From: Candidatus Latescibacterota bacterium
Lineage (GTDB): Bacteria > Latescibacterota > UBA2968 > UBA8231
Assembly: GCA_965248355.1 (NCBI GenBank)
Contig: OZ252098.1
Span: 3,584,001 to 3,648,000, forward strand
Direction of reading: 5' to 3'
Length of the DNA: 64,000 nucleotides
The notes beneath the pieces are model-generated. The model was not told the DNA's origin, made no database searches, and was given only the letters and a program-made list of their open reading frames with translations. This document shows, piece by piece, positions 6,804 through 18,118 of the stretch. Position 1 is the stretch's first letter; the number at the start of each line of letters is the position of its first letter. Both the position numbers and the translations under genes were made by a program.

Positions 6804-8294
6804 ATGGCCAAACCCACCGGATTCATGGAGTTCGAGCGCGAGCTGCCCGCCGAGCGCGACCCCGTGGAGCGCCTGCAGGACTTCGACGAGTTCCACCGGC
6901 ACCTCAGCGACGAGCGCATGCGCGACCAGGGGGCCCGGTGCATGGACTGCGGGATCCCCTTCTGCCACACGGGGACCACCCTGCCGGAGGACTCGCCCTT
7001 CGCCTCGGGCTGTCCCATCAACAACCTGATCCCGGAGTGGAACGACCTCGTCTACCGGGGGATGTGGCAGGAGGCGCTCGAGCGCCTGCACAAGACCAAC
7101 AACTTCCCCGAGTTCACCGGGCGGGTCTGTCCGGCCCCTTGCGAGGGCTCGTGCGTGCTGGGGATCAACGAGCCGGCCGTGACGATCAAGAACATCGAGG
7201 TCTCCATCATCGACAAGGCCTGGGACGAGGGCTGGGTGGTGCCGGAGCCCCCGGACCGGCGCACGGGGAAGCGGGTGGCCGTCGTCGGCTCCGGTCCCGC
7301 GGGGCTCTGCTGCGCCATGCAGCTGAACCGCGCCGGCCACCGCGTGACCGTGTACGAGCGCTCCGACCGGGCCGGCGGCCTGCTGATGTACGGCATCCCC
7401 AACATGAAGCTGGACAAGCGCCTCGTGCAGCGCCGGGTCGACCAGATGGCCGCCGAGGGCGTGACCTTCGTGACCAACACCGAGGTCGGTGTCGACCTGG
7501 AGGTGCAACAGCTCGTGGACGCCTTCGACGCCGCGGTGCTGTGCACGGGGGCGCTGAAACCGCGCGACCTCGATGTGCCGGGCCGCGGGCTTCGGGGGGT
7601 GCATCAGGCCCTGGACTACCTGCACGTCAACACCAAGTCCCTCCTCGACTCGGGGCTCGAGGACGGGGACTACATCTCGGCGAAGGACAGGAACGTGATC
7701 GTCCTCGGGGGCGGCGACACCGGCACCGACTGCGTCGGCACGGCCCTGCGCCACGGGTGCCGGAGCCTCTTCCAGTTCGACATCATCCCGGCCCCGCCGG
7801 ACGAGCGCACCACCGGCAACCCCTGGCCGGAGTGGCCCAAGGTCTACAAACTCGACTACGGCCAGGAAGAGGCCGCCGCCCTGTACGGCGACGACCCCCG
7901 GGAGTACCTGCTGAGCACGGTGGAGTTCCTCGACGACGGCGGCGGCCACCTCCGCGGCCTGGTGACCCGCGCGGTGGAGTGGGTACCGGCCGGGGACGGT
8001 CCTCCCTTCCGGGAAGTGCCCGGCACCGAGAAGGAGTGGCCGGCGGAGCTGGTGCTGCTGTCCATGGGCTGGCTGGGTCCGCAGGATACCCTGCCCGACG
8101 CCCTGGCCCTGGTGCGGGACCGCCGCTCGAACGTCCAGGCGGAGGAGGGCAAGTACGCCACCAGCATCCCCGGCGTCTTCGCCGCCGGCGACGTGCGCCG
8201 CGGCATGAGCCTGGTGGTCTGGGCCTTCAAGGAGGGGCGCGAGGCCGCCCGCGAGTGCGACCGCTACCTGATGGGCACCACGAGCCTGCCCTGA
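6804..8294 (+). CDS. gltD: Glutamate synthase small subunit
   Basis: [53 protein letters not shown]. Confidence 0.97.
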
Positions 8295-8312: not shown

Positions 8313-8756
<444 letters not shown>

Positions 8757-8785
8757 GCCCCGCCCGGCCCCACGCGGGCCCGTTC

Positions 8786-8861
8786 CGTAACATGGTTCAC
8801 CGCAGGCCCCCCGGGATCCTCCCGTTGACGGTTTGGGATCCTCTGGTTAACATCGTTCACC
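8786..8861 (+). promoter_or_regulatory. Promoter and two putative TetR operators of the efflux operon
   Basis: TTGACG(8825-8830)-N17-TAACAT(8848-8853); repeats TAACATGGTTCACC (8788-8801) and TAACATCGTTCACC (8848-8861); the second lies within the imperfect palindrome GTTAAC-N3-GTTCAC that overlaps the -10. Confidence 0.75.
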
Positions 8862-8862
8862 C

Positions 8863-10935
8863 ATGGACCGAACGGATATTCTCACCCGGGCCTGCGAGCT
8901 CTATCTGGAGGGCGGCGCCGAAGCCGTCTCCATGCGCCGGTTGGCCCGCGATCTCGGGGTCACCGCCCCGGCCCTCTACCGTCACTACGACAGCCGCGAG
9001 GAGATGCTCCTCGACGTCGTCGCCGAGGCCTACCGGCGGCTGAGCGAGCGGCTCTACGGCGCCCTCTCCGGCCGCACCCCCGCCGAGCGGCTCTACCTGG
9101 CCGGCCAGGCCTATCTCGATTTCGCCCTCGATCAGCCGAAGTACTATGAGATGCTCTACACGCCCGCCCACACCCTCGGGGCGGAAGAACTCCCCGATCA
9201 GGTGACGGAGCAGGTCGCCAGCGTCGGCCGGTTCTTCAACGACCGCGTGCGCGAGTGCATCGACGCCGGCCTCTTCCAGCCCCTCGACCCCGCCGACGTG
9301 TCCGGCACCCTGTGGGCCCACGCCCACGGCCTGATCTCCATCTACCTGCGCGGCTGTCTGGACATGGAGGCCGACGAGTTCCGCCGCCACTACGGGGCCT
9401 CGAGCCGGCGGGCGATCACCGGCATGGCCACCCCCGCCTACGAGGTTGAGATGGACCGCGCCATCGAGGACCTCTCCCGGGCGGAGGCCCGCCGGGAATC
9501 CGGGGGCAAGGGCCGCCTGCGCTCCCAGGCCGCGACCTGGCTGACCTGGGTGCTGACGGCTTTCGGCGGCGCCCCTGTGGCCGCGGAGACCACACCCGGC
9601 CAGGAGTTGGTCCTGAGCATCGACGAGGCCGTGAATCTGGCCCTGGACCGCGGCCGGGCGCTGACGGAGGCGCGCCTGCTCCTGACCGAGGCCGAGGAGC
9701 GGGTCTCCGAGGCCTGGGGAGAGGTCTTTCCGCGCCTCGACTTCTCCGCCAGCTACGTGCGCAACATCTCGCCGCCCGTCTCCTTCGTGCCGGCGAGAAT
9801 CTTCAATCCCGCGGCCCCGGAAGGTGAGTTCCTCTCCCTGGAGTTCGGGGCCGACAACAGCTGGCAGAGCGCCCTCACCTTGCGGCAGCCCCTGTTCGAC
9901 CCGAAGGCCCTGGTCGGCCTCGGTGCGGCCGAAAACTACCGGCGCCTCCAGCGGGAGATGGTCCGCGGCCACTCCCAGCAGGTGGCCACACGGGTGCGCC
10001 TCCTCTGCTACGACCTGCTGCTGCGCGGCGAGGAGGTGCGCCTCATCGAGCGCTCCCTGGATCGCCTGCGGCAGGCCCTCGAGGAGACGCGCGCGCGGGC
10101 CCGGGCGGGCCTGGCCTCCGACTACGACGTGCTGCGGCTCGAGGTCGAGCTGGCCACCCTCGAGCCGCGCCTGCTGCTCGCCGGCAACGCCAGGGCTTCG
10201 GGGCGCCGCCGGCTGGGTCTGGAGCTGGCCGTCGACGACCCCGGACGCCTGCGGTTGTCCGAGAGGGGAACCCTCACCACGGCCAGGCCCGGCCTCGAGC
10301 TTCCGGCCGGAGATCTCGTGCAGACGGCGCTGGCCCGCCGCTCCGACGTGCGCCAGCTCGAGCAGAACGCCGCGCTGCGCCGGAGACTCCTGCGGCGGGA
10401 GCAGGCGGAGTACCTGCCCAGGGTTTCCCTGTTCGCCACGTGGGACGTGCAGGCGCAGCAGGACGGAAGACCCGACTTCTTCGGCAGCGCCAACAACCGC
10501 GCCACCAGCAAGATCGCCGGCCTGTCCGTGGAGCTGCCCCTGTTCAGCGGCCTGCAGCGGGACGCCCGCATCGATCGGGAGCGGGCCGTCCTGCGCCAGG
10601 GCCAGGTGCGGGCGCAGATGGCGCGGGACGAGGCGGCGGTCCAGGTCCAGGACCTGAAGGAGGCCCTGGCCGAGGCCGCCCAGCGCGAGGGCGGCCAGCG
10701 CCTCGCCGTGTCCCAGGCGCGGCGGGGATTCGAGATCGCCAGCGCCCGCTACCGCGAGGGTCTCGGCAGCCGGCTCGATGTGACCGACGCCGAGGTCGCC
10801 CTGCGGCAGAGTGAGTTCAACATGGCCCAGGCGGCCCACGACCGGCTCGCCAGGCGGGCCCAGCTCGACCTCGCCATCGGCCGGGTGCCTCCCGTCGACG
10901 GCGAGGCCGCAACCGATTCGGAGGAGATGGAGTGA
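8863..10935 (+). CDS. TetR-family regulator fused in frame to a TolC-family outer membrane efflux protein
   Basis: aa 1-~195 TetR (VSMRRLARDLGVTAPALYRHY; LWAHAHGL); aa ~245-690 TolC/OEP (LSIDEAVNLAL, YLPRVSL, LSVELPLFSG, ARYREGLGSRLDVTDAE, QLDLAIG); no stop between the two. Confidence 0.85.
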   Translation: MDRTDILTRACELYLEGGAEAVSMRRLARDLGVTAPALYRHYDSREEMLLDVVAEAYRRLSERLYGALSGRTPAERLYLAGQAYLDFALDQPKYYEMLYTPAHTLGAEELPDQVTEQVASVGRFFNDRVRECIDAGLFQPLDPADVSGTLWAHAHGLISIYLRGCLDMEADEFRRHYGASSRRAITGMATPAYEVEMDRAIEDLSRAEARRESGGKGRLRSQAATWLTWVLTAFGGAPVAAETTPGQELVLSIDEAVNLALDRGRALTEARLLLTEAEERVSEAWGEVFPRLDFSASYVRNISPPVSFVPARIFNPAAPEGEFLSLEFGADNSWQSALTLRQPLFDPKALVGLGAAENYRRLQREMVRGHSQQVATRVRLLCYDLLLRGEEVRLIERSLDRLRQALEETRARARAGLASDYDVLRLEVELATLEPRLLLAGNARASGRRRLGLELAVDDPGRLRLSERGTLTTARPGLELPAGDLVQTALARRSDVRQLEQNAALRRRLLRREQAEYLPRVSLFATWDVQAQQDGRPDFFGSANNRATSKIAGLSVELPLFSGLQRDARIDRERAVLRQGQVRAQMARDEAAVQVQDLKEALAEAAQREGGQRLAVSQARRGFEIASARYREGLGSRLDVTDAEVALRQSEFNMAQAAHDRLARRAQLDLAIGRVPPVDGEAATDSEEME

Positions 10936-12014
10936 GCAAGCCCTTCCACCCAGCGCGCCTCATCCAGGGCGCCCCCCTCCTCGCAACCGCGGCTCTGTTC
11001 CTGGGCGGCTGCGGCGGCGAGTCCGAGGCCCTCGACGAGGCGCCGGCCGCCGACACGCACCGCATCATCAACGTCGAGGTCATGACCCTGACCCCGCGGA
11101 CCTTCACCGACAGGATCCGTCTCACCGGCACGGTCCGCGCCGACCGCGAGGTGACGGTGAGCACCGAGGAAGGCGGCACCGTGGCGGCGATCCTGGCCGA
11201 CAAGGGCGAGAGGGTGCGCCGTGGGCAGGCCCTGGTGCGGCTGGACGACGAGTTGCTGCGCGCCCAGCGCGACGAGGCCGAGGCCCAGGCGGCCCTGGCG
11301 GCGGATCTGTGGGGGCGCAAGAAGCGGCTTTTCGAAGAGGAACGCATCGGCACCGAGGGGGACTACCTCGAGGCCCGCTACACCGCCGAGCAGACCCGGG
11401 CCCGTCTCGACCTGATCCAAGCGCGGCTCCGGCGCACCGTCGTGCGGGCGCCCTTCGACGGCCTCCTCGACCAGCGCCTGCTGGAGGTCGGCTCGGTCAT
11501 CGCCCCGGGCCAGGCGGTGGGCCGCATCCTCGACCTGGAGCCGCTGAGGGTGACCACCGGCGTTCCCGAGCGCTACGCGGCCAAAGTGGCCCCCGGCGAC
11601 CAGGCGGTCGTCGCCTTCGCCGCCCTCGCGGACACCTGCGGGGCCACGGTGACCTACGTGGGGGCCGCCGTCGACGGCCGCCATCGCACCTTTCTCGTCG
11701 AGCTCGACCTCGAGCGTCCGGTGGCCGGGGCCAAGCCGGCCATGGTCGCCGAGGTGACCCTCGACCTCGAGGTCCATCCGCAGGCCATCATGGTGCCCCA
11801 CGAGGCCCTGGTGCGCACCGAGGAAGGCTTCACCGCCTTCGTCGCCGCCGGCGGAGAGGAGGGCCCCGTGGCCCGGGCGCGCCCGGTCACTCTCGGCGCC
11901 TCCGGCGGCGACCAGGTGGTGGCCACCTCCGGACTGGAGCCCGCGGACCGCCTCATCGTCGTCGGCCAGCAGCAGGTGGCGGACGGCGACCGCCTGCGCA
12001 TCGTCACCAGATGA
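10932..12014 (+). CDS. RND efflux periplasmic adaptor (MFP), lipoprotein
   Basis: Lipobox LFLGGC; GTVAAILADKGERVRRGQALVRLD; VVRAPFDG; GLEPADRLIVVGQ; GTGA overlap with the upstream gene. Confidence 0.93.
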   Translation: MSKPFHPARLIQGAPLLATAALFLGGCGGESEALDEAPAADTHRIINVEVMTLTPRTFTDRIRLTGTVRADREVTVSTEEGGTVAAILADKGERVRRGQALVRLDDELLRAQRDEAEAQAALAADLWGRKKRLFEEERIGTEGDYLEARYTAEQTRARLDLIQARLRRTVVRAPFDGLLDQRLLEVGSVIAPGQAVGRILDLEPLRVTTGVPERYAAKVAPGDQAVVAFAALADTCGATVTYVGAAVDGRHRTFLVELDLERPVAGAKPAMVAEVTLDLEVHPQAIMVPHEALVRTEEGFTAFVAAGGEEGPVARARPVTLGASGGDQVVATSGLEPADRLIVVGQQQVADGDRLRIVTR

Positions 12015-15669: not shown

Positions 15670-16917
15670 ATGGAGACGCCGGCCGTCAACAGCTACACGA
15701 TACCGCAGCGGTGGATACGCTACGACCCCACGACCGTTTTCGAGTCGCTGGTTCAGGCCAAGGCCACCGCCGGGGTCCTGAATCGAATGCCGTATCTGCC
15801 CCAGTGGATCGAGCAGGTCCACGAGGAACAGCTGCGGCTGGAGGCCGCCGGCACCTCGCGCATCGAAGGCGCCGAGTTCACCCAGGGGGAGCAGGAAGAA
15901 GCCCTCGCTCCGGACCCTCCCGCGCACACCGGGCTGACCCATTCCCAACGGCAACTGCGCGCCGCCGACGCCACCTACCGCTGGATGCGCTCACAGCCGG
16001 CCGACCGATGGGTCTCGACCGACTTCATCCTGGAGACCCACCGGCGCATCGTGACCGGCTGTGACGACGATCAATGCGAGCCCGGAGCACTGCGCCCCCA
16101 AGGCTGGAACGTCACCTTCGGCACGCCGCCCTGCCGGGGGGCCGAAGGCGGCAACGAGTGCCGCATCGCCTTCGATTCTCTCTGTTCCGCCATCGCCGGC
16201 GAGTTCCGGCAACACGACCGGATCATTCAGGCCATCGCCACCCACTACCACGTGGGATCGATGCACCCCTTCGGCGACGGCAACGGCCGCACCGCCCGCG
16301 CCCTGGAGGCGTTCATGCTGCGGCAGGCCGGTGTCAACGACATGGTGATGGTCAGCCTTTCCAATTACTACTACGAGCGCAAGGATGAGTACCTGGCGGC
16401 GCTTTTCGCCTCCCGGCGCGAGGGACACGACCTGACTCCTTTCCTCCGATTCGCCCTCGGGGCCGTCACCGAACGGAGCAACGCAGTCGCCACGCACCTC
16501 GCCGCCAACCATCAGCGCACCCTGTTCCGGGAATTCGCCAGATCGTTGTTCGGGCAGCTCCGCAGTCCGCGCCGCCGGGTCCTGGCGGACAGGCAGCTGA
16601 GAGTCGTGGAGGTTCTGCTTGACGTCGGTTCCCTCAGCCTGAATGGACTTGCGAGCAGGGTATTGGGCGATTACGACGGCCTCAAATTCCCTGAGCGGGC
16701 GTTTGCGCGGGATCTGGTTGGGTTGCTCGAGTTGTCCGCGATCACGCTTGACGACGACCGGGTCGCCGTCAACCTGGACTGGCCGATGCAGTCTTCGGAG
16801 TCGGAATTGCTGCAACGGTTGGAGAGCATGCCCGCTACCGCATCGGCCAGAAATCCGGCCATGGCGAAGTTGTCCCAGCTGTTGGGCCGCGACCGCGGGC
16901 GCGGCATTCCCAGGTGA
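15670..16917 (+). CDS. Fic family protein (class II-like, N-terminal inhibitory motif)
   Basis: Canonical HPFGDGNGRTAR; TSRIEG fits (S/T)xxxE(G/N). Confidence 0.93.
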   Translation: METPAVNSYTIPQRWIRYDPTTVFESLVQAKATAGVLNRMPYLPQWIEQVHEEQLRLEAAGTSRIEGAEFTQGEQEEALAPDPPAHTGLTHSQRQLRAADATYRWMRSQPADRWVSTDFILETHRRIVTGCDDDQCEPGALRPQGWNVTFGTPPCRGAEGGNECRIAFDSLCSAIAGEFRQHDRIIQAIATHYHVGSMHPFGDGNGRTARALEAFMLRQAGVNDMVMVSLSNYYYERKDEYLAALFASRREGHDLTPFLRFALGAVTERSNAVATHLAANHQRTLFREFARSLFGQLRSPRRRVLADRQLRVVEVLLDVGSLSLNGLASRVLGDYDGLKFPERAFARDLVGLLELSAITLDDDRVAVNLDWPMQSSESELLQRLESMPATASARNPAMAKLSQLLGRDRGRGIPR

Positions 16918-17483: not shown

Positions 17484-17723
17484 ATGCGGATGCCCATCAG
17501 CGAGTTCAAAGCCAAATGCACCCAGGTCGTGCGCGAAGTTGGCACCAAATACAGAACTGTGGAGTTGACCAATCGCGGCAAGGTCGTAGCGCAAGTCGTC
17601 CCGCCTGAGCCGGAGACCAAACCCGATCCCCAATCCTTCTTCGGCTCGCTCCGAGGTACTGTCGCGTACCAGCCCGGTTGGGATGAGCCTCTCGGCGAGG
17701 ATGATTGGGAAGCTTGTCAGTGA
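17484..17723 (+). CDS. Phd/YefM family antitoxin
   Basis: MPISEFKAKCTQVVREV..VELTNRGKVVAQVVP; GTGA overlap with the PIN toxin. Confidence 0.92.
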   Translation: MRMPISEFKAKCTQVVREVGTKYRTVELTNRGKVVAQVVPPEPETKPDPQSFFGSLRGTVAYQPGWDEPLGEDDWEACQ

Positions 17724-18118
17724 AGTACTTGCTCGACACCAATGCGTGGATCTGGGCCTTGGAGGCACCGGAAAAACTGCCCGACCCGACAAGAGCAGTG
17801 CTGATGGAGCCGGATCACCTGCCTTTTGGGCTAGCGGCGATCAGTCCTTGGGAAGTAGCAAAAAAAGAGTCCAAGGGGCTTCTGCATTTATCTATGCCCG
17901 TGCGCCAGTGGGTAGCGCACGCCACCCAAGCCCCGTTCATAGAGGTTCTGCCCCTTTCGGTGGATATAGCCCTCGAATCGGCGCATTTGCCTGCTCCATG
18001 CCACAAAGACCCAGCCGACCACATGATCGTCGCCACAGCGCGGATGCACAATCTGGTGCTGATCAGTGCCGACCAACGGCTGCGCGCCTATCCACACGTG
18101 CAAACAAAGTGGCAATAG
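17720..18118 (+). CDS. vapC: VapC/PIN-domain toxin
   Basis: YLLDTNAWIW, ISPWEVAKK, HKDPADHMIVATA, LISADQRL. Confidence 0.92.
   Translation: MKYLLDTNAWIWALEAPEKLPDPTRAVLMEPDHLPFGLAAISPWEVAKKESKGLLHLSMPVRQWVAHATQAPFIEVLPLSVDIALESAHLPAPCHKDPADHMIVATARMHNLVLISADQRLRAYPHVQTKWQ

Follow-up and report, generated by a model that had tools for sequence, protein, structure and literature searches.

A conserved TetR-TolC gene fusion with an internal signal-like segment heads an RND efflux operon

Tripartite resistance-nodulation-division (RND) pumps regulated by TetR/AcrR proteins, for example AcrR with AcrAB-TolC, have been reviewed (PMC8277102). In such a system a TetR-family repressor stands over an RND pump, its adaptor and an outer membrane factor (OMF). 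AcrR itself is a free cytoplasmic repressor with its own gene, usually divergently transcribed. Here we describe the same components in a different layout, in a stretch of 64,000 nucleotides from a Candidatus Latescibacterota bacterium (assembly GCA_965248355.1, contig OZ252098.1, positions 3,584,001 to 3,648,000), which we call the window. The gene in question, a fused tetR-tolC, is a single uninterrupted open reading frame (ORF) of 690 amino acids (aa) plus stop at 8863..10935 of the forward strand. Comparison with related sequences indicates that this frame is a genuine, conserved and selected gene fusion, not a sequencing slip.

The same gene order occurs with separate genes in tetR-tolC-mfp-rnd operons of metagenome-assembled genomes (MAGs) labelled Gemmatimonadota or Longimicrobiales (loci L009, L010, L011, L031, L032 and L033). 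Their TetR and TolC proteins are 58–70% and 55–60% identical to the window's, and their TetR has a similar C-terminal tail. They differ from the window in that the tetR stop overlaps the tolC start (ATGA), so that two proteins are made and TolC has its signal peptide at the N-terminus.

For the joining of a cytoplasmic to an exported protein, the nearest documented parallel is hepatitis C virus core-E1. The first protein there is cytosolic and binds nucleic acids, and its C-terminal end is the signal peptide of the exported protein that follows; according to the account in PMC5402940, signal peptidase separates the two, core stays anchored by the signal peptide, and signal-peptide peptidase then releases it. 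That system belongs to a viral polyprotein at the eukaryotic endoplasmic reticulum and has no sequence relationship to the locus described here, so it serves as an analogy of mechanism only. Among bacteria, the Bradyrhizobium FbcH cytochrome b/c1 precursor is cleaved at an internal signal peptide, and its second half is likewise exported through that signal. Both halves of FbcH are subunits of one membrane complex, however, and neither is a regulator. ToxR and CadC place a DNA-binding domain at the inner membrane through a single hydrophobic segment, as an anchored TetR would be. In those proteins the domain is a winged helix and the periplasmic sensor stays attached, whereas cleavage in the present case would detach the periplasmic part, which would serve as a channel.

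A term search covering 300,000 characters of PMC8277102 returned no natural repressor-OMF fusion, and full-text literature searches, whose coverage leaves out most subscription journals, returned no description of a TetR-OMF fusion. The parts are ordinary, and the architecture is already present in public protein sets, where it is labelled only as TolC.

A conserved fused reading frame

The first-pass annotation of the window reported one uninterrupted frame that holds a full TetR, a charged helix, a signal sequence and a full TolC, ahead of genes for a membrane fusion protein (MFP) and an RND transporter. The ORF list and Pfam confirm this arrangement (Table 1). On the fused protein, Pfam finds TetR_N (PF00440) at aa 6–51 with 44.3 bits against a cut-off of 24, TetR_C_33 (PF13305) at aa 80–171 with 49.6 bits, and OEP (PF02321) in two stretches up to aa 673 with 155.3 bits. 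Several TetR models of NCBIfam also match, and its TolC/NodT models match partially and below cut-off (TIGR01844, 86.7 bits for a cut-off of 225; TIGR01845, 75.2 bits for 210). Sequence matches in the PDB are to TetR regulators, with 2oi8_A at the top (E 1e-11).

An AlphaFold2 (AF2) monomer model has a mean predicted local distance difference test (pLDDT) score of 69. It contains nine TetR helices within aa 3–183, a tail helix at aa 191–209, a short helix at aa 223–232 and, starting at aa 249, the alternating long-helix and strand pattern of TolC. Scores fall below 50 at aa 88–108 and 143–189.

The N-terminal part has the helix-turn-helix (HTH) and the all-helical ligand/dimerisation domain of about nine helices that mark TetR regulators. 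It departs from the family in not being a free cytoplasmic protein of about 200 aa: no stop follows the TetR part, and about 500 further residues do. The C-terminal part has the tandem OEP repeats of an OMF, with an adaptor and an inner-membrane transporter encoded alongside. An OMF would carry its signal peptide at the N-terminus; here a signal-like segment (aa 216–236) sits behind a complete TetR. The domain order is that of a polyprotein, with a cytoplasmic first protein, an internal signal and an exported-type second protein in one chain.

Table 1. Features of the fused gene and its operon (positions in the window)
Feature	Position	Strand	Description and basis
Fused tetR-tolC ORF	8863..10935	+	690 codons plus stop; open frame, Pfam, relatives
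TetR moiety, aa 1–186	8863..9420	+	HTH aa 6–51, ligand/dimerisation domain aa 80–171; Pfam, 9 predicted helices, dN/dS 0.12
TetR C-terminal tail, aa 187–215	9421..9507	+	Charged helix 191–209 (AF2 model); homologous to stand-alone TetR tails; dN/dS 0.34
Internal Sec-type signal segment, aa 216–236	9508..9570	+	KGRLRSQ / AATWLTWVLTAFGG / APVAA; aligns with N-terminal signal peptides of unfused TolC; predicted helix 223–232
Mature TolC-family OMF, aa 237–690	9571..10932	+	OEP x2, confident fold from aa 249, dN/dS 0.36
Possible internal start	9442..9453	+	GAGGT (9442–9446), 4 nt, in-frame ATG 9451–9453 (Met197)
MFP (periplasmic adaptor), HlyD_D23	10932..12014	+	GTG start overlaps tolC stop (GTGA, 10932–10935); GGAGG 7 nt upstream
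RND transporter, 1133 aa	12011..15412	+	ACR_tran 674.9 bits; ATG overlaps MFP stop (ATGA, 12011–12014)
Sigma-70-like promoter	8825..8853	+	TTGACG-17 nt-TAACAT; sole promoter-like site in 8600–9700; shuffles mean 0.0
Operator-like 13-mer, upstream copy	8788..8800	+	TAACATGGTTCAC; equivalent place in L004, L006, L008; direct repeat D2
Operator-like 13-mer, over -10 hexamer	8848..8860	+	TAACATCGTTCAC; within GTTAAC-ATC-GTTCAC

The fusion recurs in close relatives. A word-indexed protein search returned 16 cluster representatives at 80–100% identity, all with PF00440, PF13305 and PF02321, from source contigs of 2.8 kb to 5.6 Mb. Fifteen of them are 689–691 aa long and one (P0016) is 640 aa. A single scan of genome contigs yielded 78 loci, in which fusion was judged by a stop-codon walk. 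Six loci (L001–L006, 83–84% identical) have no stop anywhere between the start of TetR and the end of TolC, and they include short-read SPAdes-style NODE contigs as well as long-read chromosomes. Locus L008 (88% identical) is continuous across the junction and changes frame near aa 344 of TolC (L008:7032-7035). Gaps in the linker of fused members span one or two residues, occur in several places and are all whole codons. The combination of TetR_N and OEP is therefore found beyond the window, in these 16 representatives of the same family and in at least 120 Elusimicrobiota clusters described below. Nor are all close homologs separate genes: six loci are fused, though six sister loci are separate.

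Selection was assessed as mean pairwise Nei-Gojobori ratios of nonsynonymous to synonymous substitution (dN/dS) over the window and L001–L006 (7 coding sequences, 21 pairs). The ratios are rough, with dS about 0.25 and a genome rich in G and C at third codon positions (GC3-rich); they come to 0.12 for TetR, 0.34 for the tail and 0.36 for TolC, compared with 0.355 for the MFP and 0.215 for the RND gene. Constraint on the TolC half equals that on the adaptor, and the low values of TetR and TolC indicate purifying selection on both halves, which argues that each is maintained and functional.

The sequences of some relatives break the frame, which counts against a genuine fusion. The close clusters P0388 (313 aa, 92%) and P0389 (226 aa, 93%) track the family to about aa 207–210 in the linker and then run into an out-of-frame tail rich in Arg, Pro and Gly. 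L008 breaks within TolC, as noted, and L012 (6001-7236) is truncated near aa 534. These breaks may be long-read homopolymer or assembly errors, or real decay. P0018 (435 aa, 83%) begins inside TolC, and the C-terminal end of P0016 is garbled. Together with a linker rich in G/C runs, the four breaks would fit a sequencing or assembly error in a two-gene layout, or a recent pseudogene. We nevertheless consider either explanation very improbable. The frame survives in 16 clusters and in 6 genome loci that differ in project of origin and in sequencing technology, the linker indels are whole codons, dN/dS is low in both halves, and TolC has no start codon of its own left at the junction.

The first-pass annotation had also proposed a specific slip. 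It described a run of five Cs at 9431–9435, a TGA at 9447–9449 in the -1 frame, and an in-frame ATG at 9451 behind GAGGT, all of which are present in the window sequence, and suggested that one more C would restore two ordinary genes. We reject that suggestion. The -1 frame TGA is unique to the window, where it is formed by GTT GAG; in the other seven fused DNAs the codon ahead of that GAG is GTG, GCC, GCG or ACG. Other bases break up the C run in L006 (CCG GCG) and L008 (CCT GCC). The implied ancestral TetR stop at 9447 would also lie about 20 codons too early, since the real junction is an ATGA at the start of the signal peptide. A programmed -1 frameshift at the C run, by which TetR would end at the TGA and TolC would be made separately, can be given almost no credence for similar reasons. 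A -1 slip on CCC CCG in the window would indeed give RLRG and then a stop, but the absence of that stop from the other seven DNAs and the broken C runs speak against it, and there is no slippery heptamer.

Origin of the fusion and a second family

A TetR match lies directly upstream of TolC in 57 of the 78 loci, and in 50 of those 57 the two are separate genes. Eight of the 15 junctions that were read have an ATGA overlap, in which the tolC ATG runs into the tetR TGA. All six loci nearest the fused clade, the separate operons introduced above, are among them. Most of the eight also carry GGAGG or GAGGT within the tetR tail.

Stand-alone TetR proteins have a tail of 20–35 aa past a GMATPxYE motif, and the TetR high-scoring segment pairs (HSPs) of unfused loci extend to query aa 190–216. 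Since stand-alone proteins carry an equivalent tail, the charged helix of the window protein (aa 187–215) is the old TetR tail. The residues that follow, KGRLRSQAATW..., align with the former signal peptide of TolC (for example MRTLRPVRRGLL...), which places the ancestral ATGA junction at the start of the signal peptide, downstream of TGA 9447. By these alignments the fusion is derived from an autoregulated tetR-tolC-mfp-rnd operon with an ATGA overlap, of which that stop and that start were lost.

In a FastTree phylogeny of 82 TolC parts, from which L008, L012 and L072 were left out for frame breaks, the seven fused rows group together as a clade (support 99), with L007 plus P0019 as its sister (99), and those nine are sister to the six ATGA loci (100). 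L007 and L012/P0019 retain a decayed C-terminal half of TetR in frame with TolC; the HTH half and the tail are gone. Because this TetR remnant is in frame with TolC, the fusion predates the split from the L007/P0019 lineage, and judging by the sequence that lineage later lost its regulator. An AT-rich stretch (L007:5760-5990) takes the place of the HTH half in L007, and TolC starts there at the Met equivalent to Met188.

Five other loci (L014, L047, L051, L076 and L077) were candidates for further fusions, as a single tblastn HSP runs over TetR and TolC in each. All five have an intervening stop and were rejected. In L014, L051 and L077, tetR and tolC share a frame and are kept apart by one stop and a few codons, so that one substitution would fuse them. 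Near-identical relatives in these collections are labelled variously as Candidatus Latescibacterota, Gemmatimonadaceae, Gemmatimonadetes and Gammaproteobacteria, an inconsistency of MAG taxonomy.

A second family was found by an exhaustive search of 1.84 billion cluster representatives, of which the best 150 were examined. Two chains among those 150 combine TetR with TolC: P0006, which belongs to the window clade, and P0227. The latter is 628 aa long and 31% identical to the window protein, with TetR_N at aa 19–64, two OEP matches and no match to TetR_C_33. A search with P0227 returned at least 120 clusters of 599–638 aa at 61–100% identity, and all 120 listed have both PF00440 and PF02321. 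Every source name in this family that bears an organism (23/23) is Elusimicrobia or Elusimicrobiota. NCBI labels the proteins 'TolC family protein' or 'hypothetical protein', and JGI labels some of them 'outer membrane protein TolC/DNA-binding transcriptional regulator YbjK'.

The Elusimicrobiota fusions (P0227 and the other 119 clusters listed), known here from proteins alone, resemble the window protein in having TetR_N, an internal signal with the usual n-, h- and c-regions (n/h/c) and two OEP matches in a chain of about 625 aa. They differ from it in having no charged tail: the last TetR helix (...LARLICAGAR) leads directly into x-K-A, an h-region and A-x-A. On the TolC tree they occupy a separate long branch, and the fused or remnant state therefore needs two origins.

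These proteins also bear on whether a fused chain can yield TolC. The column that corresponds to the old start of TolC holds, across the 120 listed sequences, Leu in 66, Met in 28, Ala in 12, Val in 6, Ile in 5 and Thr in 3, where Leu, Val and Ile are read from protein and not from codons. At least the 15 sequences with Ala or Thr have no start codon at that position, which means that the fused chain must be the TolC precursor there. Met is common at just one other position, within TetR and 30 residues upstream. From these sequences, a fused chain can evidently serve as a precursor of TolC.

Chains of another kind appear in the same list of the best 150, namely RND-TolC single chains that join ACR_tran to a TolC-family part (P0201, of 1488 aa, P0219 and P0228). 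In P0228 a linker of about 100 aa separates the end of the RND part from TolC and contains a signal-like segment ending in AFAQ. Such sequences suggest that an internal signal can also join tolC to an inner-membrane gene that lies upstream of it.

The internal signal segment and routes to TolC

The linker of the window protein reads ...GGKGRLRSQ-AATWLTWVLTAFGG-APVAA followed by Glu, with K216 at 9508–9510 and E237 at 9571–9573. The n/h/c layout noted in the first-pass annotation is kept in all 12 fused representatives examined: each has basic residues, an uncharged span of 18–21 aa, and A/V-x-A before an acidic residue (E/D). A basic n-region, a hydrophobic h-region and small residues at -3 and -1 mark Sec signal peptides cut by signal peptidase I (SPase I), whose predicted site lies between A236 and E237. 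The location is unusual, 215 residues into the chain; the segment would be N-terminal only if translation began at Met197, and it would then have an n-region of 25 aa.

The h-region of the fused clade is rich in Trp, Thr and Gly. A lipobox-like L-x-[AS]-C motif is present in the signal segment of some members, as LLSCGG in P0004 and P0011 and as LLLACG in L007 and P0019, and is lacking in others (AFGG, GWG). Part of the clade may undergo lipoprotein-type processing.

The first-pass annotation argued that TetR works in the cytoplasm and TolC must be exported, so that the two could not act as one intact chain. The argument stands: with no stop codon after the TetR part, TetR can come only from a long chain, and every such chain carries the signal peptide. 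TolC in the window has lost its own start: no ATG, GTG or TTG occurs in frame between codons 198 and 229, which leaves only Met197. We lean, without great confidence, towards cleavage of a polyprotein by SPase I, at its internal Sec signal, as the main route to TolC. One chain of 690 aa would be translated from a probably leaderless mRNA, and its N-terminal 186 residues would fold in the cytoplasm as an ordinary TetR repressor. What was once the signal peptide of TolC, now internal, would engage Sec, and the TolC part would be threaded out. SPase I would cut past A-x-A, and TolC would proceed to the outer membrane for the MFP-RND pump. TetR would keep the charged tail and a C-terminal signal peptide; it might be held at the inner membrane, or be freed by slippage or degradation of the weakly hydrophobic signal.

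A second possibility is internal initiation. Most functional TolC precursor would then begin at ATG 9451 (Met197), and the full-length chain would mainly be a source of TetR, with its TolC part exported or degraded. The ATG is in frame, with GAGGT 4 nt upstream. The genome uses internal operon starts led by a Shine-Dalgarno (SD) sequence, as with the GGAGG 7 nt before the GTG of the MFP, and unfused relatives have GGAGG or GAGGT in the tetR tail ahead of tolC. A weak h-region would also suit a classical N-terminal signal better than a signal-anchor. We hold this route to be possible but, on the whole, unlikely as the main one. Four of the 15 unfused TetR tails (L010, L032, L034 and L039) also have Met at this point, and for that reason Met197 and its GAGG are weak evidence for an internal start. 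The view that Met197 is a new start specific to the fusion, suggested by the Lys, Gln or Arg found there in L009, L031 and L033, was dropped in light of those four tails. GAGG arises wherever GAG precedes any codon that starts with G, and in-frame pairs of SD and start codon are common within window ORFs, although this survey was crude, as high GC yields many spurious ORFs. A conserved first-position G at codon 195 is likewise a weak SD signature, with ACG, and hence GAGA, in L008. In the Elusimicrobiota family, Met stands before the signal in 28 of the 120 listed sequences, and 15 have Ala or Thr. Internal initiation would in any case leave the full-length chain to be dealt with, and it and cleavage of the polyprotein are not exclusive of each other.

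A third possibility is an uncleaved signal-anchor, in which the chain would work intact, with TetR facing the cytoplasm and the TolC-like domain remaining fixed to the inner membrane. The uncharged span of 18–21 aa could cross the membrane. The conserved A-x-A and the acidic residue after it speak against an anchor, and in the AF2 model the TolC fold begins only about 12 residues past the hydrophobic segment. In the structures of TolC and OprM the N-terminus belongs to the equatorial domain, a long way from the inner membrane. With so short a spacing and that geometry, an intact chain could presumably not reach the outer membrane. TolC is moreover a trimer and TetR a dimer. We regard a permanent anchor as quite improbable.

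Several observations weigh against cleavage of the polyprotein as the main route, or against its importance. AF2 confidence is low at aa 143–189 and 204–245. Hydrophobicity of the h-region, as the mean Kyte-Doolittle value over 11 aa, is clearly lower in the window clade (1.74) than among 13 unfused relatives (2.67) or among 30 of the Elusimicrobiota fusions (2.62); this could ease release of TetR after cleavage, or reflect drift. At a dN/dS of about 1.0, the signal segment (aa 216–236) could be a weak signal or one subject to drift. Every aligned fused sequence has Met197, and seven of the eight fused DNAs have GAGG 5 nt ahead of it. Finally, the sister lineage (L007, L012/P0019) lost its TetR half, so the fusion is not indispensable.

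Operon control and significance

The fused gene, the MFP gene and the RND gene are joined through 4-nt overlaps. No promoter-like site was found within 8863–9700, and the single sigma-70-like site upstream (Table 1) has its TTGAC and its TAAC.T hexamer conserved across eight aligned fused loci. The -10 hexamer TAACAT ends 9 nt upstream of the ATG, and the ORF opens just four codons upstream of it. Given this spacing, the operon mRNA is probably leaderless.

Two operator-like 13-mers precede the gene. Their shared pattern, TAACANNGTTNAC, has only two matches in the window (8788 and 8848), both upstream of the fused gene, where 0 are expected from 100 shuffles. As read from the alignment, the region of GTTAAC-ATC-GTTCAC forms a 6-3-6 palindrome without mismatch in L004, L006 and L008; an inverted-repeat finder run on 8760–8880 of the window returned no pair. 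The 13-mer also lies directly before the unfused tetR in L009, L010 and L032. The sequences are consistent with binding of TetR at these sites, and TetR would then repress the operon through both, one of them over the -10 hexamer.

Directly upstream of the fused gene is a small protein with a terminal SEC-C motif (PF02810; 8313-8756), preceded by a gene resembling the glutamate-synthase small subunit (6804-8294). Downstream of the pump operon are a Fic/DOC-domain protein with a HPFGDGNGRTAR motif and a PIN-domain protein (15670-16917 and 17705-18118).

A fuller account can be offered tentatively, and we think it rather doubtful as a whole. It would make the gene a repressor-channel polyprotein with strict 1:1 synthesis, co-translational delivery to Sec, a cut by SPase I and the spent signal as a tether. 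Repression would be coupled to export flux, and the arrangement would have evolved at least twice, in a Gemmatimonadota-like clade and in Elusimicrobiota. What would set repressor activity is the speed of release or breakdown of this tether, or else encounters at the membrane with lipophilic substrates of the pump.

One intact chain cannot serve both as a cytoplasmic DNA-binding repressor and as a channel in the outer membrane; even so, the two remain fused in two lineages that are unrelated. The regulator has been missed because annotation pipelines label such fusions just 'TolC family protein'. If the polyprotein account is true, this would be a natural bacterial case of SPase processing of a polyprotein behind a folded cytoplasmic domain of 200 aa, in which synthesis, location and release of a repressor are coupled to export of the protein that it regulates. 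Autoregulation of efflux pumps would here follow a new logic, and internal signal sequences could be studied in a system already at hand. The RND-TolC chains hint that internal Sec signals may be a general route by which tolC fuses with its upstream neighbour.

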